DNA of 64,000 nt from Candidatus Aenigmatarchaeota archaeon (GTDB lineage Archaea; Aenigmatarchaeota; Aenigmatarchaeia; QMZP01; QMZT01), in NCBI GenBank assembly GCA_016932735.1, contig JAFGCI010000006.1, positions 36,167 to 100,166 on the forward strand. Direction: 5' to 3'. The stretch's first letter is position 1; each line of letters opens with the position of its first letter. Position numbers and translations under genes: made by a program. A model generated the notes under the pieces. That model saw nothing but the letters and a program-made list of their open reading frames with translations. It searched no databases and was not told where the DNA came from. Below are positions 2,988-17,683 of the stretch, piece after piece.

Positions 2988-3050
2988 AAGAAATAATTAC
3001 ATGCGCTTTTTTATATTACTCAATATTTGCATATTTCTTAAGAAGTGAAA

Positions 3051-3133
3051 CGCTGGAACTGGGATTTGAACCCAGGAACCCCGAAGGGAACAGGGTTAGC
3101 AACCCTGCGCCTTAACCGCTCGGCCATCCCAGC
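3051..3133 (-). tRNA. tRNA-Ser (anticodon GCT), long variable arm, no intron
   Basis: Reverse complement is GCTGGGATGGCCGAGCGGTTAAGGCGCAGGGTTGCTAACCCTGTTCCCTTCGGGGTTCCTGGGTTCAAATCCCAGTTCCAGCG. It forms a 7-bp acceptor stem (one GU), an anticodon loop TTGCTAA (GCT), a long variable arm, a T-arm CTGGG/TTCAAAT/CCCAG and discriminator G. Confidence 0.8.
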
Positions 3134-3184
3134 ATTGGTATATCTTAAATGAAAACAATTAAATAAAAAGAAATGTGTTTGTTT

Positions 3185-3802
3185 TTACTGTTTTTTCTTG
3201 GTTGGTTTTCCCACGTCTTCTTTTGATGACGGTTTGACTTTGAGCCCGATTTCTTCAAGTTTTATCTTGAATTTGTCAAGCGCCTTGTATATGTCATCAA
3301 TCTTGTGGGCGCCTGTGCAGATTATCTTTCCCGAGCTGAACAGAAGGAATGCAACTCTCGGTTCCTGAATCCTGTAGACAAGTCCCGGGAACTGCTCCGG
3401 CTCGTATTCTGCATCCTCAAGAGCGAATGCGATATCATCAAGGCTTAATTTAGCATCGATTTTCGATGATGCTACTATATTCTCAATGTTCACCGGATAT
3501 TTCTTTGGCATCTTTATTCCTATTTCCTCAAGCTTGTCTGTTACCTTTTTCATTGCCGTGTGCGCAAGCTCGATGCTCTTCGTTCCGGTACAGACAATCT
3601 TACCTGATGAAAAGATAAGTGCCGCTGCCCTCGGGTCCTGCGTCCTGTAGACAAGTCCTGGGAACTGCTCCGGCTCGTATTCAGCGCTCTTAATAGAAGA
3701 GACAACATGATTCAAAGATATATCGACCCCCAGAACAGAAAAAGCTACAACGTTCTCAATCTTTATAGAGAACTTGCTCTTAGTCTCAGTTGGTTTTGGC
3801 AT
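3185..3802 (-). CDS. tbp: TATA-box binding protein (TBP)
   Basis: Two direct TBP repeats, each with 'EYEPEQFPGLVYR', 'FSSGKIVCTG' and 'KLEEIG'. The C-terminal tail is basic (KPSSKEDVGKPTKKKQ) rather than the usual acidic archaeal tail. Confidence 0.9.
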   Translation of the reverse strand: MPKPTETKSKFSIKIENVVAFSVLGVDISLNHVVSSIKSAEYEPEQFPGLVYRTQDPRAAALIFSSGKIVCTGTKSIELAHTAMKKVTDKLEEIGIKMPKKYPVNIENIVASSKIDAKLSLDDIAFALEDAEYEPEQFPGLVYRIQEPRVAFLLFSSGKIICTGAHKIDDIYKALDKFKIKLEEIGLKVKPSSKEDVGKPTKKKQ

Positions 3803-3836
3803 AAAAAATCCCCCTTTTCGAAAAATCTATAGGCCC

Positions 3837-3867
3837 TTTATAAAGGGTTTATAAAGTATTTATAAAG
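3837..3867. promoter_or_regulatory. three tandem palindromic TATA-like elements (tttataaag at 3837, 3848 and 3859; 11-bp period) upstream of tbp
   Basis: Sequence cctttataaagggtttataaagtatttataaagagg lies 35-65 bp upstream of the tbp start codon, which is on the minus strand. Each unit contains the palindrome TTTATAAA. Confidence 0.4.
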
Positions 3868-4015
3868 AGGTATTTAAAGCTATCGGTCCAATCCAGCAGA
3901 TACCGGGATATACCTAAACCTTGTATTCATAAAATTATTGTATGTCAGAAACTTTTATATCGACATCAGAATAGTCCATAAAGAGCTATGAGCTATGGTT
4001 AGTTATAATTAAAAA

Positions 4016-4591
4016 TCAATATCTCACAATATTCACTTCTTTTCCTGAAAGATCAAAAACTCTCGACGGGAGGCCGTCAATCTCGCCGGCATCTATTGCT
4101 ATATCTGTCAGAGCCTTTATATCTTCCGGAAGCTCGCTTATCTTCTTTATCGGCTCTTCGCCGGAAAGGTTCGCGGAAGTGGTTACAAATGGTATTCCGG
4201 TTGTCCGGACAAGGTCTGTGAATTTGTTCAGCGGTATCCGGATTCCTATGGTTTTCTGTAATGAGACGAGTTCTTTCGGGGCTGAAGGCGTTGCCTTAAG
4301 TATCACTGTATAAGGTCCCGGAAGGAGTGATTTTACGAAAGCGAGATTCTCTTTCGTTCCCGTCGCGTTTTCCTCAATCCAGTCAAATGATGGAGCTATG
4401 ACTGACATCGGCTTTCCGGGGTCTCTCCCCTTTGCGTTCTTGATTCTCGAAACAGAGCCGGAATTGTTAGCATCGCATCCTATTCCGTAAACCGTGTCCG
4501 TCGGATAGACGAAAACCTTTCCGGCTTTTACCGACTCTATGATGTAATCCTTTTTAGAACCAAGGGCGTCACTGAGCCTTATTATTTCCAT
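4016..4591 (-). CDS. L-threonylcarbamoyladenylate synthase (TsaC/Sua5/YrdC family)
   Basis: The 'VFVYPTDTVYGIGCDA' motif and overall YrdC-domain pattern; 191 aa. Confidence 0.8.
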   Translation of the reverse strand: MEIIRLSDALGSKKDYIIESVKAGKVFVYPTDTVYGIGCDANNSGSVSRIKNAKGRDPGKPMSVIAPSFDWIEENATGTKENLAFVKSLLPGPYTVILKATPSAPKELVSLQKTIGIRIPLNKFTDLVRTTGIPFVTTSANLSGEEPIKKISELPEDIKALTDIAIDAGEIDGLPSRVFDLSGKEVNIVRY

Positions 4592-4641
4592 AATGTTATA
4601 TTGTCGATTCAGTATTTATTTATCAAATCGAATCTGATATT

Positions 4642-5673
4642 ATGTTTAATTTTATGCAGAGGCAGAAACGCCTAAAGGAAAGCATGAAGGAAGCCGGACT
4701 AGATTGTCTTATAGTTTCTGACAGAAAGGACATTTATTACCAGACAGGCTTCCTTCCGCTTGACGGCGATTTCGCTTTTCTTATATTCACCACAGAAAAA
4801 AGGCCGGAACTCTTCGTAAATCCGGTTTCCAACAGGGCGGAGAGCCTGAAAACAGCCGATACATGTTTCGTAAAGGATGTAAAAGAGATGGTCGGTAATG
4901 CAGGCTTATCGGGAACAATAGGATTCGATGAGAAGAGTTTGTCTGTCTCATCTTTTATGGATATATCAAAGCACCTGAGAAAGCATCGCCTGAAAAAGCC
5001 GTGCTCAGATTTAATCAGGTCGCAGAGAGCGGTAAAAGATGAAAGCGAAATATCGGAAATGGGAAATGCCGTGGCAGTTACTGAAAAGATTCTTTCCGAT
5101 GCCAGAGGCTATATGGAAGGAAAAAGAGAATTCAATATCGCGAAAAAAATCGAGAAGTCCATGCTCGAAAAACTCATGGAGAGATCCTTTGAGACCATCG
5201 TCGCTTCAGGAAAGAACTCATCTCTCATACATTACATTCCGGGCAAAGGTCTTATCGGGCAGAAGAGTCTTGTTGTCATTGACATGGGGATTATTTCCAA
5301 TAACTATTGCTCTGACATGACGAGAACATTTTGTCTGAAGCCCGGCCCGAAGGAGCAGAAGCTCCATGATAATATTCTTGAGGTTCAGGAAACTCTTATT
5401 GACAGAATCCATGAAGGCGTCCGCGTAGAGGAAATCAATAGAATCTATCAGGAAGAAATGGCAAAAAAAGGATATGCTGTCAATCATGGCTGGGGACATT
5501 CCATCGGACTGGACGTCCATGACCCCGGCTTTAAGGAATTCAGGAAGGGGATGGTCATAACAGTCGAGCCGGGCGCATACATCAAAGGGTTCGGAGGCTG
5601 TCGCATCGAGGATATGATTCTTGTTGGGAAGGCTAAAAGTAAGAAAATGACGAAAATGAAGAGTTCGCTTTAG
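4642..5673 (+). CDS. M24 family metallopeptidase (Xaa-Pro dipeptidase/aminopeptidase-like)
   Basis: Pita-bread fold signatures 'HGWGHSIGLDVHDPG', 'GMVITVEPGAYI' and 'GGCRIEDMILV'. Confidence 0.8.
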   Translation: MFNFMQRQKRLKESMKEAGLDCLIVSDRKDIYYQTGFLPLDGDFAFLIFTTEKRPELFVNPVSNRAESLKTADTCFVKDVKEMVGNAGLSGTIGFDEKSLSVSSFMDISKHLRKHRLKKPCSDLIRSQRAVKDESEISEMGNAVAVTEKILSDARGYMEGKREFNIAKKIEKSMLEKLMERSFETIVASGKNSSLIHYIPGKGLIGQKSLVVIDMGIISNNYCSDMTRTFCLKPGPKEQKLHDNILEVQETLIDRIHEGVRVEEINRIYQEEMAKKGYAVNHGWGHSIGLDVHDPGFKEFRKGMVITVEPGAYIKGFGGCRIEDMILVGKAKSKKMTKMKSSL

Positions 5674-13116: not shown

Positions 13117-13164
13117 ACAACAATATATTGTTAAATTCTGGGGGGAAGACACAACATATTGTGT
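13117..13164. promoter_or_regulatory. two tandem NrdR-box-like palindromes upstream of nrdR-nrdD
   Basis: The first box is acaacaatatattgtt at 13117-13132; it contains the perfect 14-bp palindrome aacaatatattgtt. The second is acacaacatattgtgt at 13149-13164. The second matches 15/16 of the consensus acaCwAtATaTwGtgt as I remember it. The box centres are 32 bp apart. An archaeal TATA-like tttataaa sits at 13100-13108. Confidence 0.6.
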
Positions 13165-13207: not shown

Positions 13208-13672
13208 ATGAAGTGTCCATATTGTTCCAGTCAGGAATCGAAGGTCGTTGACAAGAGAACTTCCGAGACTTCTGATGCTATCAGAAGACGAAGAGAATGC
13301 CTGAAATGCGAGAATCGGTTCACTACTTTTGAGCGCGTTGAAAGGGGAGACCTCCGCGTCGTCAAAAAGGACGGAAGAAGGGAGCAGTTCGACCGCCAGA
13401 AACTCCTTGCAGGAATTAACAAGGCATGCGAAAAACGACCGGTGACGGCGGAGCAGATTGATGATATTGTTGATAAGATTGAAGCCGACCTCAGGAAGAA
13501 GGGGGAACAGGAAATACCAACCACAACAATCGGCAACACTATAATGAAGCATCTCAAGAAGCTGGATAAGGTCGCATACATCAGGTTCGCTTCTGTCTAC
13601 AAGGACTTCGCGGACCTTGAGGACTTCGGCCGCGAAGTCGATAAATTGATAAAAAGGCCTGCATCGCAGTAG
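13208..13672 (+). CDS. nrdR: transcriptional repressor NrdR (zinc ribbon + ATP-cone)
   Basis: 'MKCPYCSSQESKVVDKR...CLKCENRFTTFERVE' zinc ribbon followed by an ATP-cone ('VVKKDGRREQFDRQKLLAGINKAC'). Start taken at the internal ATG at 13208 (MKCPYC). Confidence 0.85.
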   Translation: MKCPYCSSQESKVVDKRTSETSDAIRRRRECLKCENRFTTFERVERGDLRVVKKDGRREQFDRQKLLAGINKACEKRPVTAEQIDDIVDKIEADLRKKGEQEIPTTTIGNTIMKHLKKLDKVAYIRFASVYKDFADLEDFGREVDKLIKRPASQ

Positions 13673-13682
13673 CGATCGGGGA

Positions 13683-15791
13683 TTGGAATTGAGATTAAAT
13701 AAGAGAAAATACATTGAGAGGGAGAGGAAAATGGGACTTGAAAAAATCAAGAAAAGGGACGACAGGATTGTTAAATTCGATAATGATAAAATAAAGAACG
13801 CGATAATGAAGGCTGTCAAGGCGGTCGGCGGCAAGGACGAGAAATCCGCCGAACAGCTTGCAACCCAGGTCATAACGCTTCTTAAGAGAAAATTCAGGGA
13901 CCAGATTCCTTCTGTTGAAGATGTCCAGGACATGGTCGAGAAGGTCCTGATAGAGAACGGCCATGCAAAAACGGCGAAGGCTTTCATACTATACAGGGAG
14001 CAGAGAGCCGCTGTCAGGGATGTCAAGAAGCTTTTATCGGACACTGAGATTGTTGATGATTACCTCAAGGAAACGGACTGGCAGGTCAGGGAGAACTCTA
14101 ACATGAGCTACTCTCTTCAGGGATTGAACTCCCATCTGTCATCCCAGATAATATCAAATTACTGGATGAGCAAGTTATATCCGAGGGAAATTCAGGAAGC
14201 CCACAGGACAGGGGATTTCCACATTCATGACCTCGGCGTCCTCGGCGCATACTGCGTCGGGTGGGACCTCCGCGACCTTCTCATTTCAGGATTCAAGGGA
14301 GTCCGCGGAAAGATTGAGTGCAGGCCGCCCAAACATTTCCGCGTGGCGCTTGGGCAGATTGTGAATTTCTTTTATACACTGCAGGGAGAAGCCGCGGGAG
14401 CGCAGGCTTTCTCGAACTTCGATACATATCTTTCGCCTTTCATCAGGGCGGACAACCTTGATTTTAAGCAGGTCAAACAGACACTCCAGGAATTTATCTT
14501 CAACATAAACGTCCCTACCAGAGTTGGATTCCAGACACCTTTCACCAACATAACGCTTGATCTGATCGTCCCCGCTAACATAAAAGATGATGCAGTGATA
14601 ATCGGCGGGAAGATGACCGAGACGACCTATGGGGACTATCAGAAAGAGATGGACGTCTTCAATGAGGCCTTTGCCGAGGTCATGATGGAAGGAGACGCCT
14701 CCGGAAGGGTCTTCACATTTCCCATACCGACTTACAACATCACAAAGGACTTCGACTGGGACAGCCCCAAGTACAAGGGCATTTGGGAAATGACTGCAAA
14801 ATACGGAATACCGTATTTCTCGAACTTCATAAATTCCGACATGAAGCCGGAGGATGCAAGGTCTATGTGCTGCCGCCTCAGGCTTGACAACAGGGAACTG
14901 CGAAAAAGGGGCGGAGGCTTATTCGGAGCCAACCCATTAACAGGCTCAATCGGCGTCGTGACAATAAACATGCCGAGGCTCGGTTTCCTTTCAAGGAACG
15001 AGAAAGAATTCTTCGCAAGGCTCGACAGCCTCATGGACCTTGCAAAGGAGAGCCTTGAGATAAAGAGGAAAATAATAGAGAGCTTCACTGACAAGGGCCT
15101 TTATCCATACTCAAAATTCTACCTGAGGGCGACAAAGGATGCGACCGGGTCCTACTGGACTAACCATTTCTCGACAATCGGTCTGGTCGGCCTGAACGAG
15201 GCCGTCATGAATTTCATGGATGCTAACATCGCAGATGAGAATGCAAGGAAATTCGCCATCAAAGTGCTTGAGTACATGAGAGAAAGAATATCGGGTTATC
15301 AGGAGGCGACAGGCCATATATACAATCTGGAGGCTACGCCGGGAGAAGGAACTTCCCACAGGCTTGCAAGGCTCGATAAGAAGCTCCATCCTGAAATTGT
15401 CGTTGCCAATGAATACAATGTAAGGAAGTTTGGAGCTGCTCCTTACTATACGAACTCAAGCCAGCTTCCTGTCAATTACACGGATGACATTTTCACAGCG
15501 CTTGACCTGCAGGAAGAGCTTCAGACAAAATACACAGGAGGGACGGTCCTCCACGGTTTTGTCGGGGAGAGAATGCCGTCGCCTGAGGCAACGAAGATGC
15601 TCGTGAAAAAGATTGCGGAGAACTACAAGATACCGTACTTTACGATAACGCCGACATTCTCGATATGTCCGAAGCACGGATATCTTGCAGGCGAGCACAA
15701 GTTTTGTCCGAAGTGCGACGAAGAGATTGGATATGTGAAAAAACCGGTTGCTGCCAGCGAGCCCGTCAGGGCAGTGGCAGAAGTCAAATAA
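13683..15791 (+). CDS. nrdD: anaerobic ribonucleoside-triphosphate reductase (class III, NrdD) large part, lacking the glycyl-radical motif
   Basis: N-terminal ATP-cone (KRDDRIVKFDNDKIKNAIMKAV), a central class III core (CCRLRLD) and C-terminal Zn site 'CPKHGYLAGEHKFCPKC'. There is no RVxGY glycyl radical motif before the TAA at 15789-15791. Confidence 0.9.
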   Translation: MELRLNKRKYIERERKMGLEKIKKRDDRIVKFDNDKIKNAIMKAVKAVGGKDEKSAEQLATQVITLLKRKFRDQIPSVEDVQDMVEKVLIENGHAKTAKAFILYREQRAAVRDVKKLLSDTEIVDDYLKETDWQVRENSNMSYSLQGLNSHLSSQIISNYWMSKLYPREIQEAHRTGDFHIHDLGVLGAYCVGWDLRDLLISGFKGVRGKIECRPPKHFRVALGQIVNFFYTLQGEAAGAQAFSNFDTYLSPFIRADNLDFKQVKQTLQEFIFNINVPTRVGFQTPFTNITLDLIVPANIKDDAVIIGGKMTETTYGDYQKEMDVFNEAFAEVMMEGDASGRVFTFPIPTYNITKDFDWDSPKYKGIWEMTAKYGIPYFSNFINSDMKPEDARSMCCRLRLDNRELRKRGGGLFGANPLTGSIGVVTINMPRLGFLSRNEKEFFARLDSLMDLAKESLEIKRKIIESFTDKGLYPYSKFYLRATKDATGSYWTNHFSTIGLVGLNEAVMNFMDANIADENARKFAIKVLEYMRERISGYQEATGHIYNLEATPGEGTSHRLARLDKKLHPEIVVANEYNVRKFGAAPYYTNSSQLPVNYTDDIFTALDLQEELQTKYTGGTVLHGFVGERMPSPEATKMLVKKIAENYKIPYFTITPTFSICPKHGYLAGEHKFCPKCDEEIGYVKKPVAASEPVRAVAEVK

Positions 15792-15805
15792 GGCAAGGTG
15801 ATAAT

Positions 15806-15955
15806 ATGGAAAAAGAAATAACTGAAGAAATGAGAACTAAATGCGAGGTCTTCTCGCGTGTTGTCGGTTACTTAAGGCCGGTCGACCAGTGGCACGACGG
15901 CAAGCAGGCAGAGTTCAGTGACAGAGTGACCTTTGATAAGCAGATAGAGAAGTGA
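15806..15955 (+). CDS. stand-alone NrdD C-terminal glycyl-radical domain (49 aa)
   Basis: MEKEITEEMRTKCEVFSRVVGYLRPVDQWHDGKQAEFSDRVTF contains the glycyl radical motif RVVGY and the NrdD C-terminal pattern N/D-x-G-K-x-x-E-x-x-D-R-V. It has its own SD (aaggtga) and ATG 14 nt after the nrdD stop, in a different frame. Confidence 0.6.
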   Translation: MEKEITEEMRTKCEVFSRVVGYLRPVDQWHDGKQAEFSDRVTFDKQIEK

Positions 15956-15960
15956 CTCTA

Positions 15961-16647
15961 ATGAATATCGGGGGGTTTGTCAAGAACACGCTAATAGACT
16001 ATCCGGGAAAGATGTCGTGCATCATATTCACACAGGGATGTTCTTTCCGCTGTCCCTTCTGCCAGAACAAAGAGCTGGTTGACGTCCCCGATGATGCAGA
16101 ATCCATAAAGGAGTCATACATCTTTTCATTTCTCAAAAAAAGAAAAGGCTTGCTTGATGCGGTTGTAATAACCGGAGGAGAGCCGACACTTCAAAAAGAC
16201 CTTCCCGATTTCATAAGGAAAGTCAGGGAGCTTGGATTTCTCATCAAGCTCGATACCAACGGATGGGCTCCTGAAATTCTTGAAAGGTTGTTAAAAGAGA
16301 ACCTAATCGATTTTGTTGCAATGGACATCAAGGCTTCAAAGGATAATTATGAGAAGGCGGCAGGCGTCAAAGTAAATATATATAATATAGAGAAGTCAAT
16401 CCGCCTTATACGTTCATCAGGACTCCCATACGAATTCAGGACGACTGTCGTCCCCGGAATCCACGATAAAGACGACATCAGGAAAATGGCTCAGTGGATT
16501 GAAGGCTCAAACCTCTTCCTGCAGAAGTTCGTCCCTCAGAACACGCTTGACCCCGAATACGAAAAGAAGAATCCATTCACTAACAAGGAAATGGAAGAGA
16601 TGAAAAAGATTGCGGGGCAGTTTGTGAATTGTGGGCTGAGAGCTTAA
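15961..16647 (+). CDS. nrdG: anaerobic RNR activating enzyme NrdG (radical SAM)
   Basis: The 'GCSFRCPFCQN' CxxxCxxC cluster and 'VVITGGEPTLQ'. An alternative GTG start at 15952 overlaps the stop of the preceding small ORF. Confidence 0.8.
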   Translation: MNIGGFVKNTLIDYPGKMSCIIFTQGCSFRCPFCQNKELVDVPDDAESIKESYIFSFLKKRKGLLDAVVITGGEPTLQKDLPDFIRKVRELGFLIKLDTNGWAPEILERLLKENLIDFVAMDIKASKDNYEKAAGVKVNIYNIEKSIRLIRSSGLPYEFRTTVVPGIHDKDDIRKMAQWIEGSNLFLQKFVPQNTLDPEYEKKNPFTNKEMEEMKKIAGQFVNCGLRA

Positions 16648-16810: not shown

Positions 16811-17683
16811 ATGCCGAAAAGAAATATGTTGTGGATTTCATTTGCTGTCATTTTTTTGATTTCATTTAGTGGGTGTATCCAACAAAACACGAAAGAAAAT
16901 GCAGAATCAATCGCACAGGAATTTGCTATAAATTTACAAAAATCAGACTATGAAAGCTTATATGATTTATTCATACCTGATCTCAAAAGCATGAGAAAAA
17001 AATCAGATTTCGTTAAATATGTGAATATAAAAGGATCGCCACTTGATAACAATTATATAATTTTTGACAAAGTCGTAATGCAGGGAGATAATGAAGCTTA
17101 TGCATATTATACGTTATCAAGTGGCATATTTGAGGCTAAAGTTCCTCCTATGCATTTGATTTTTACGTCGGAAGGTTGGCGTGTTGACGCATTTTCAGAT
17201 TACTTTTCTGCTGGATGCATCATAGATGATGACTGTTCAGCAGATTATCCTCGGTGTAGCAAAAATTTAGAATGTGTAAAATGTGTAAGTGATGCAGATT
17301 GCTCCGATTCGGGAAAGAAGCATTGTGATAGTGTTCTTAATATCTGTCATGAATGTATAGAAGATTACCATTGTCCCAAAGATAAACCAATATGCTATGG
17401 GTTTAGTTGTATTGAATGTAGGAAAAATTCAGATTGCCCAACAGAAACTCCATATTGTAATTATGTGTTAGGCAGTGGTTATGTTTGCAATAATAATCCT
17501 ACCGGGATAGAATGTATAGAGGATGTAGATTGTATCGTACTTTATGGAACAAAAAAGATGTATTGTAATGCGAATGGAAAGTATATTAGATTTACTCACG
17601 AGGATGAATGCATTTATTGCAGAGACGAATCAGACTGTCCTAGAGGAAAAGATTATTGCATTTCAGGTGAATTCTGTGTCTAA
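16811..17683 (+). CDS. putative lipoprotein with C-terminal cysteine-rich repeats
   Basis: Signal and lipobox-like 'FLISFSGC'. The C-terminal half has four 'C-x2-C-x3-5-DC-x5-8-C' repeats (e.g. CVKCVSDADCSDSGKKHC, CIECRKNSDCPTETPYC). Confidence 0.6.
   Translation: MPKRNMLWISFAVIFLISFSGCIQQNTKENAESIAQEFAINLQKSDYESLYDLFIPDLKSMRKKSDFVKYVNIKGSPLDNNYIIFDKVVMQGDNEAYAYYTLSSGIFEAKVPPMHLIFTSEGWRVDAFSDYFSAGCIIDDDCSADYPRCSKNLECVKCVSDADCSDSGKKHCDSVLNICHECIEDYHCPKDKPICYGFSCIECRKNSDCPTETPYCNYVLGSGYVCNNNPTGIECIEDVDCIVLYGTKKMYCNANGKYIRFTHEDECIYCRDESDCPRGKDYCISGEFCV

Follow-up and report, generated by a model that had tools for sequence, protein, structure and literature searches.

Separate genes for the barrel chain and the glycyl-radical loop of an archaeal anaerobic ribonucleotide reductase

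The window analysed here is a 64,000-nucleotide stretch of the genome of Candidatus Aenigmatarchaeota archaeon (GenBank assembly GCA_016932735.1, contig JAFGCI010000006.1, positions 36,167 to 100,166). It encodes a class III (anaerobic) ribonucleotide reductase (RNR), NrdD, on two consecutive open reading frames (ORFs): a large one for the catalytic barrel and a small one, of 49 residues, for the loop that bears the radical glycine. We consider it very probable that the two products constitute a naturally split, obligate two-polypeptide enzyme. To our knowledge, all glycyl radical enzymes (GREs) carry the radical glycine on the barrel chain, the only known exception being GrcA, the rescue protein of pyruvate formate-lyase (PFL). 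No description of a separately encoded NrdD glycyl-radical loop was found in the literature searched, although absence there is not proof of absence.

An NrdD encoded by two ORFs

The large ORF, nrdD-large, scores well above the cutoffs of the full-length NrdD models, with 1079.6 bits against 548 for NCBIfam NF006126 and 534.4 bits against 326 for TIGR02487. It covers positions 1-532 of the 562 positions of the Pfam profile NRDD (PF13597; 619 bits, E 8e-186) and has a separate ATP-cone match. Its finger loop, SMCCRLR, contains two cysteines, C380 and C381, which are invariant in a 60-sequence alignment; this MCCR loop puts the chain in the double-cysteine subclass of NrdD described earlier (PMC9669993). 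The residues C646, H649, C659 and C662 are likewise invariant in this alignment. They align to the Zn-site region of the NrdD of Prevotella copri (PDB 8P23) and are the predicted ligands of a Zn ribbon. As an earlier note on this DNA had read from the sequence, the ORF stops after the Zn site, ending in FSICPKHGYLAGEHKFCPKCDEEIGYVKKPVAASEPVRAVAEVK, and RVxGY is absent: the barrel chain runs for 24 residues past the Zn ribbon without the motif. Such large-chain tails vary widely between split relatives, and the variable part of the tail is probably a linker remnant. By every profile and fold comparison the protein is an NrdD, except that its Gly motif lies off the barrel chain. It is 100% identical to MBN2101980.1, from a metagenome-assembled genome (MAG) of Candidatus Aenigmarchaeota.

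The motif is carried by the small ORF, nrdD-small, which encodes MEKEITEEMRTKCEVFSRVVGYLRPVDQWHDGKQAEFSDRVTFDKQIEK. It starts in a different frame at ATG 15806, behind a 14-nt gap (15792-15805) that holds a Shine-Dalgarno motif, in agreement with the earlier note; this ATG, and not the one at 15665, is the true start of the gene. The Shine-Dalgarno motif is kept in two relatives (L082 and L085) despite different gap lengths. The codon of the radical glycine, Gly21, is GGT at 15866-15868. With 37.8 bits against a cutoff of 26.2 (E 1.3e-9), the small ORF matches positions 531-562 of the NRDD profile, and both ORFs together tile the 562 positions without loss. Being a fragment of 49 residues, it predictably does not reach the cutoffs of the full-length NCBIfam models, and NCBIfam has no model dedicated to the mini-protein. 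The NCBI record of the small protein (MBN2101981.1, 'hypothetical protein JW716_03870') adjoins MBN2101980.1 on a 217-kb contig; this pair of records is probably the window's own.

Eleven residues are invariant across 50 diverse mini-proteins: C13, E14, S17, R18, G21, Y22, R24, P25, K33, E36 and R40. In the 30-codon core of the mini-ORF, the ratio of nonsynonymous to synonymous substitution rates (dN/dS) is about 0.04 over 141 pairs from bacteria of the Candidate Phyla Radiation (CPR), which indicates strong purifying selection. Between the window and L085, 23 of the 90 nucleotides of this core differ but only 1 of its 30 residues. These values bear on whether a broken nrdD is merely decaying as a pseudogene and being lost from a reduced genome. 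The genomes of CPR bacteria and of DPANN archaea (Diapherotrites, Parvarchaeota, Aenigmarchaeota, Nanoarchaeota, Nanohaloarchaeota and relatives) are indeed reduced, and these organisms often scavenge nucleotides. However, both parts of the gene are intact and highly conserved, the catalytic and Zn residues are invariant, the small ORF has the low dN/dS just given, nrdG and nrdR are kept together with operator-like boxes, and the architecture persists over deep lineages. Decay is therefore very improbable. Neither a second nrdD nor a second Gly motif occurs within the window, where the small ORF is the only source of the radical glycine.

A true spare part beside a complete NrdD was considered and rejected: a search of all loci for a second Gly motif returned only tandem nrdD paralogues in one locus (L076, Dojkabacteria) and no mini-ORF. 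These paralogues are both full-length (1102-2973 and 3001-5118 of that locus); the first lacks the ATP-cone and has a canonical RVVGY, while the second reads RIVGK. The related RVVGK occurs in L075. At the position behind the radical glycine, a lysine instead of the aromatic residue, as in these two loci, is unusual.

Recurrence of the split and alternative readings of the junction

We scanned one genome per species and obtained 80 loci with an NrdD at 54-68% identity, of which 38 are split alike, 41 are contiguous and 1 is cut by a contig end. The orthologues are thus not all contiguous; had they all been so, with identical local sequence, the earlier note would have taken a natural split as refuted. 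Split loci come mostly from Patescibacteria, Falkowbacteria and CPR2, and also from Micrarchaeota, Aenigmatarchaeota, Saccharibacteria and other archaea. Their intergenic gaps range from 0 to about 250 nt and their ORFs lie in all three relative frames; at the lower limit, in L001, the large-ORF stop is directly followed by the ATG. The Gly motif is absent in 76 of the 120 best large-ORF homologues from a collection of 5.8 billion proteins, and a word-indexed search with the small ORF gave 94 matches, all of them stand-alone proteins of 38-84 residues. A profile built from 50 small ORFs was searched against 1.84 billion cluster representatives (50% identity) and found 5078 matches at E <= 1e-3, a total that includes the C-termini of full-length NrdDs. 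The best 150 of these 5078 are all 48-149 residues long (median 61) and start with M, V or L; a Zn-ribbon-like motif is present in only 2 of the 150. The mini-ORF also occurs on CPR contigs of about 0.9-1.1 Mb, near whole-genome size for CPR. Judged from these sequences, the split two-gene design is conserved in hundreds of ultra-small bacteria and archaea, and the split form dominates the CPR and DPANN lineages.

Gene order varies as well. In a Halanaerobiaceae lineage, represented by 205 collection blocks, the order is nrdD-large, nrdG, small ORF. The large ORF has 674 residues and ends in CPKCDAEMGYQTDIA; the mini-ORF has 46 residues (MERQKCEIYSRVVGFLTPV and onward, with the motif RVVGF), a GGGAGG site of its own and a terminator hairpin after it. 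Since the mini-gene is able to sit beyond nrdG, it is not a frameshifted tail. The small gene always adjoins nrdG, which lies immediately 3' of it in 41 of 41 split loci and before it in Halanaerobiaceae. That the two genes are conserved and independent, that their spacing and order vary, and that the small one is under purifying selection can be read directly from the sequences.

Most CPR spacers contain a conserved TTGTAA/TTGTAT-N17-TATAAT just past the large-ORF stop (L010, L013, L016, L017, L022, L023, L026 and others). It looks like a sigma-70-type promoter dedicated to the small gene and nrdG. No ORF was found inside these spacers, which measure 36-249 nt.

The earlier note had offered three readings of the junction in the window: an assembly frameshift, programmed frameshifting and a natural split. 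An indel introduced into a contiguous nrdD by sequencing or assembly would put the two ORFs in different frames, as they are here, and MAGs often contain single-base indels. The same junction, however, recurs in assemblies from other samples and pipelines. One of them, L081 (Logan SRR13394437), is identical to the window over 3893/3893 nt but may share the window's own sample and so may not be independent. A near-identical junction is present in L082 (NCBI GCA_964521635.1), L083 (JGI 3300005235) and L084 (ENA ERZ27293347), which carry the small-protein variant P0001, 98% identical over 49 residues, and a relative that is 88% identical and also split is carried by L085 (Logan SRR9700624) and L086 (JGI 3300031643). 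Moreover, a single indel would not make a stop, a Shine-Dalgarno motif and an ATG together, purifying selection acts on the small ORF from its own ATG onward, and splits with differing spacers are found in hundreds of lineages. The chance that the break is an artefact is negligible, and the assembly frameshift is refuted.

Programmed -1 frameshifting, or transcriptional slippage at the A6 run at 15738-15743, would yield a single NrdD of about 730 residues. The small ORF does lie in the -1 frame here, and this frame is open upstream of it, for 47 codons to ATG 15665 as the earlier note had stated, and for 73 codons to the previous stop; the A6 run is the sole homopolymer within the overlap. Nevertheless, no canonical X XXY YYZ slippery heptamer was found in the large-ORF frame between 15600 and 15790. 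In L082, a 97%-identical strain, one substitution changes the -1-frame codon CAA, three codons ahead of the ATG, to TAA, so that a -1 shift there could not yield a fusion. In L085 and L086 the gap is 24 nt and both ORFs are in the same frame, separated by a TGA and a second in-frame TAA. From these stops and the lack of a heptamer we conclude that the long open -1 frame of the window is a coincidence. Recoding is also at odds with the gaps of 0-250 nt and the three relative frames among relatives, with the position of the small gene past nrdG in Halanaerobiaceae, and with the conserved Shine-Dalgarno motif and ATG that the small ORF has of its own, and we regard it as effectively refuted. A natural split, by contrast, is strongly supported by independent assemblies, by hundreds of lineages with varied gaps, frames and gene orders, and by purifying selection on the small ORF.

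A split intein or some other ligase could also unite the two products post-translationally into a one-piece NrdD. 'Fractured' RNR genes with split inteins exist (PMC2677866). Some large-ORF homologues carry inteins, and DnaE split-intein chains are weakly similar to the small ORF. The 24-residue tail of the large chain and the 12-residue N-terminus of the small chain are, however, far too short for intein halves and highly variable, and Pfam detects no intein domain in either ORF. The DnaE similarity (small ORF, 15806-15952, against the Npu-type chains PDB 4LX3, 4QFQ and 2KEQ; E.R..C.V.S...Y..PV.QWHD; phmmer E 0.07-0.6) is non-significant and needs a gap within the Gly loop; we judged it to be due to chance. 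Joining by such a route is highly improbable.

Several large-chain homologues are longer by 300-400 residues: P0103/P0104 (985 residues; L087, 60-3017), P0098 (999 residues), P0137 (1080 residues) and P0147 (1037 residues). Because at least two of them carry intein/LAGLIDADG Pfam domains (PF14528 in P0137, PF14890 in P0147), inteins appear to have inserted in this NrdD clade.

Breakpoints, structure and known split enzymes

The glycyl radical domain of P. copri NrdD (residues 676-739) comprises the Zn site, the buried Gly711 loop and a surface tail; it is mobile, and with deoxyadenosine triphosphate bound it is too dynamic to be detected by cryo-electron microscopy (PMC11226230). Our large chain aligns to 8P23 up to the CPKC that ends near residue 703, and the small chain aligns from residue 710 on; in P. 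copri a linker of about 6 residues lies between this CPKC and L710. The break therefore falls within the short linker that connects the Zn ribbon to the strand leading toward the radical glycine. According to this alignment, the split cuts the radical domain in two and leaves the Zn ribbon on the large chain. The earlier note had assigned the glycyl-radical domain to the separate ORF, which holds for the Gly loop and the C-terminal tail but not for the Zn ribbon.

We modelled the concatenated chains with AlphaFold2 (AF2), as an artificial covalent fusion and with a 60-sequence alignment. The model is NrdD-like, with a predicted local distance difference test score (pLDDT) of 84.2 and a predicted template modelling score of 0.80, and Foldseek matches it to solved NrdD structures with E 1e-31 to 1e-21. 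Residues 673-687, at the junction, have a pLDDT below 50 and are predicted to be disordered, which fits a flexible tether that can be cut. The small part is predicted to contain an EVFS strand (700-703) and a helix (717-725), both at moderate confidence.

Contiguous relatives read CPxC-x(4-9)-EV[YW]SRVVGY across the corresponding region. A rough neighbour-joining tree, built without support values, places split forms in several positions: a large CPR clade, a DPANN group that includes the window, L040, and a deep group of L067, L077 and L068/L079. The breakpoints differ among these groups, the CPKCDEEIGY type keeping a complete Zn ribbon on the large chain. Since split forms are dispersed in the tree and have different breakpoints, this site has evidently undergone fission and fusion on more than one occasion. 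Both chains of L040 (about 4960-5276) look amphipathic and heptad-like next to the break, in the tail REEELRKEIETLEAQLV of the large one and the N-terminus AERSELILKIEELKNELANVKG (MAERSELILKIEELKNELANVKG) of the small one; these segments may form a coiled-coil clasp joining the chains. Of the second Zn knuckle, just the first Cys is left on the large chains of L079 (about 4935-5183), L068, L067 and L077, which end for instance in GEHYECNHVLNKKA; the small chain reads MPSKCGKK at its start or has an internal VPCEV, that is, a KC or PC directly before the Gly strand. These sequences suggest that the fourth Zn ligand may be supplied in trans by the small chain, as an inter-chain metal clasp.

Further variants concern the small chain itself. 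In the main CPR clade (e.g. L010, 5153-5293), the small ORFs read RVVGW-L/I-TPV instead of RVVGY-LRPV, a clade-wide change of both the residue after the radical glycine and the conserved Arg. The mini-proteins P0215, P0218 and P0227 contain an internal tandem duplication of the Gly-loop segment (e.g. EVYSRVVGYLSPVSHWNEGKKEEWEVYSRVVGYLSPVSHWNEGKKEEW); the duplication either stems from the assembly or makes them true two-headed radical peptides. Longer stand-alone proteins with a CxxC before the Gly loop are also seen, P0326 (115 residues; CTVC and CPGC) and P0308 (149 residues; CPTC). In such lineages the break may lie before the Zn ribbon, which would make the whole radical domain autonomous.

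The split system shares its family, by hidden Markov models and fold, with the one-piece NrdD/NrdG systems of known structure (phage T4, Thermotoga maritima, P. copri and Streptococcus thermophilus). The ATP-cone, the barrel, the finger-loop cysteines, the Zn ribbon, the RVxGY loop and the adjacent nrdG are common to both. The difference is that the chain here is broken between the last CxxC and the radical-glycine strand, with the glycine on a separate 49-residue polypeptide. NrdD of Escherichia coli or T4 that has been truncated by oxygen is cleaved at the radical glycine, lacks the residues from the Gly loop onward and is inactive. It resembles our large chain, whose truncation, however, is genetically encoded and paired with a separate replacement piece.

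GrcA (YfiD) and Y06I of phage T4 are likewise small stand-alone Gly-loop proteins, presumably activated by the cognate activase and inserted into a barrel that has no usable loop. GrcA is roughly 127 residues long and represents a whole radical domain, whereas the small ORF of the window holds only the Gly loop and tail. A Pfam scan of the small ORF at E up to 0.01 found only NRDD and no match to Gly_radical (PF01228). Moreover, GrcA is a backup for an intact enzyme, while the small ORF is the sole source of the glycine. The analogy with GrcA drawn in the earlier note is thus useful as a mechanism only; it extends neither to homology nor to a role as a spare. According to a review of June 2026 (PMC13450708), spare-part proteins are known for no GRE class other than the formate lyases.

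RNRs encoded in pieces are known. NrdJa/NrdJb of Pseudomonas aeruginosa and of Thermus phage phiYS40, and NrdA-a/NrdA-b of Aeromonas phage Aeh1, are also two consecutive ORFs whose products must reassemble, and some are separated by short intergenic gaps, such as the 12 nt of phiYS40 nrdJ (PMC3653736, PMC2988022 and PMC9669993, ref. 43). As in genes-in-pieces generally, the adjacent ORFs of the window together cover a full-length homologue, and fused homologues exist. The known split RNRs, however, belong to class I or II, or are phage nrdD genes interrupted by mobile elements (an intron or a homing endonuclease gene) or by an unknown cause. The 14 nt between our ORFs contain no intron, intein or homing endonuclease, and unlike the known cases the split defines large cellular clades (CPR, DPANN and the Halanaerobiaceae lineage). 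No known split RNR that separates the glycyl-radical loop was found in the literature searched.

Operon context and proposed working of the two chains

The two ORFs belong to a compact array, nrdR, nrdD-large, small ORF, nrdG, all on the forward strand at about 13.1-16.6 kb of the window (Table 1). The match of nrdR to TIGR00244 spans residues 38-184 of a 191-residue ORF, and the true start is probably ATG 13208. Upstream lie two palindromes that are putative NrdR boxes by the published consensus; the second was retrieved by a pattern scan in which the observed count was reached in 0 of 100 shuffles. From its sequence and position, the pair is a likely operator for the operon. NrdR is, as far as we know, mainly bacterial. 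The RNA polymerase subunits encoded at 23.2-30.5 kb (B'', B', A' and A'') mark the window as archaeal; the presence of nrdR in an archaeal (Aenigmarchaeota) genome therefore suggests that CPR bacteria and DPANN archaea have exchanged the whole nrdR-nrdD-nrdG unit.

Directly 3' of nrdG, at 16811-17683, a 290-residue ORF encodes an N-terminal hydrophobic segment and many repeated Cys-rich motifs (C..DC, CP.D.P.C).

Table 1. Features of the split nrdD operon, with positions in the window unless another locus is named
Feature	Position	Strand	Description and basis
NrdR-box-like palindromes (two)	13117-13132 and 13149-13164		ACAACAATATATTGTT and ACACAACATATTGTGT; 5' of nrdR, start-to-start 32 bp; read from the sequence
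nrdR	13208..13672	+	Repressor with Zn ribbon and ATP-cone; TIGR00244 E 3.8e-59; Pfam Zn_ribbon_NrdR and ATP-cone
nrdD-large	13731..15791 (ATG 13731, TAA 15789-15791)	+	686 residues; ATP-cone, ten-stranded barrel, MCCR finger loop and Zn ribbon; without the glycyl radical loop
Predicted Zn-ribbon ligands	15666..15716	+	Cys646-x2-His649 ... Cys659-x2-Cys662; putative ligands from invariance and alignment to 8P23
Large-chain tail	15717..15788	+	24 residues, DEEIGYVKKPVAASEPVRAVAEVK; DEEIGY conserved, remainder variable and predicted disordered
Shine-Dalgarno motif of the small ORF	15795..15802	+	AAGGTGAT; inside the 14-nt gap, read from the sequence
nrdD-small	15806..15955 (ATG 15806, TGA 15953-15955)	+	49 residues, glycyl-radical subunit; RVVGY loop and conserved C-terminal tail
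nrdG	15961..16647	+	Radical S-adenosylmethionine activase; TIGR02495 NrdG2 E 8.7e-69; begins 5 nt past the small-ORF stop
Halanaerobiaceae bacterium loci L088/L089	2001-4961 of those loci		Anaerobic digesters; glutaredoxin-like and integrase genes upstream

Assembly of the chains, activation off the enzyme and an advantage in repair are what we infer from this arrangement, as follows. The large chain would supply the Zn ribbon, the ATP-cone and the barrel, whose finger loop (MCCR) bears the thiyl radical, while the small chain, translated from its own Shine-Dalgarno motif and ATG, would supply the only glycyl-radical loop (SRVVG21Y) and the C-terminal tail. The small chain, free or loosely docked at this stage, would lose hydrogen from Gly21 to NrdG, whose gene is adjacent. 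The Gly loop would then enter the barrel non-covalently and lie beside Cys380/381, like the tethered loop of a one-piece NrdD. In glycyl radical enzymes oxygen causes cleavage at the radical glycine, and GrcA rescues PFL damaged in this way (PMC13450708). Because cleavage occurs at this residue, the 49-residue peptide would be the only part destroyed by oxygen and could be replaced by a fresh copy, as a consumable cartridge.

Several observations weigh against an obligate two-chain enzyme. Close relatives retain natural fusions, so that the split state is not obligatory across the sequences compared: P0097, 73% identical and in the same nrdR-nrdD-nrdG context, reads CPICDEEIGLKKSAKAKSLERKRTRCEVYSRVVGY with a long linker retained, and P0099 and P0171 are similar. 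The split could thus be nearly neutral and be tolerated through the disordered linker. In the AF2 model, the region of the Gly loop has only moderate confidence, with 10-residue block means of 60-83, and as the input was covalently fused the model cannot show non-covalent docking.

The main rival explanation for why the split exists follows from the first of these points. On this view the split is real but brings no selective benefit: the disordered linker between the Zn ribbon and the Gly loop can be interrupted by a stop and a restart, and the gene passes by drift between split and fused forms with no role in repair. This explanation would account for the mixture of fused and split forms among close relatives, for the predicted disorder of the junction and for the poor conservation of the tails and N-termini. 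On the other hand, at least 3-4 parts of the tree have a break at one and the same structural position, with differing breakpoints, the small gene consistently adjoins nrdG, the promoter-like TTGTAA-N17-TATAAT precedes it in most CPR spacers, and the split form dominates the CPR and DPANN lineages. None of these is decisive, but the promoter-like motifs and the constant adjacency to nrdG lean towards function, and we hold neutrality to be rather unlikely.

We tentatively propose that the small gene encodes a radical cartridge, a possibility for which we would not claim even chances. This protein of about 50 residues would be activated by NrdG off the barrel, dock reversibly and be replaced after oxygen damage or quenching. 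Fission would have been selected repeatedly, at no fewer than 3-4 breakpoints, the metal-clasp variants included. If this is true, the cartridge would allow cheap upkeep of the only RNR through oxygen fluctuations in ultra-small, host-dependent CPR and DPANN cells and in some anaerobic Bacillota, and the glycyl radical cofactor could be a diffusible protein subunit in a second GRE class.

The two-ORF NrdD of the window represents a new arrangement for GREs, in which the only radical glycine of an essential enzyme lies on a separate product of about 50 residues, and which is dominant in CPR bacteria and DPANN archaea, two radiations that are very large and little understood. The mini-ORFs have been annotated as 'hypothetical protein' or given the full enzyme name at 43-47 residues, and the large ORFs have passed without comment for complete enzymes. 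These lineages may be misjudged where a metabolic reconstruction demands an intact NrdD or where an RNR phylogeny is filtered on the Gly motif. The small chain offers a natural minimal substrate for studies of Gly-loop recognition by activases and of the movement of the radical domain into and out of the barrel. It may also embody a built-in strategy of repair after oxygen damage, which is directly testable.

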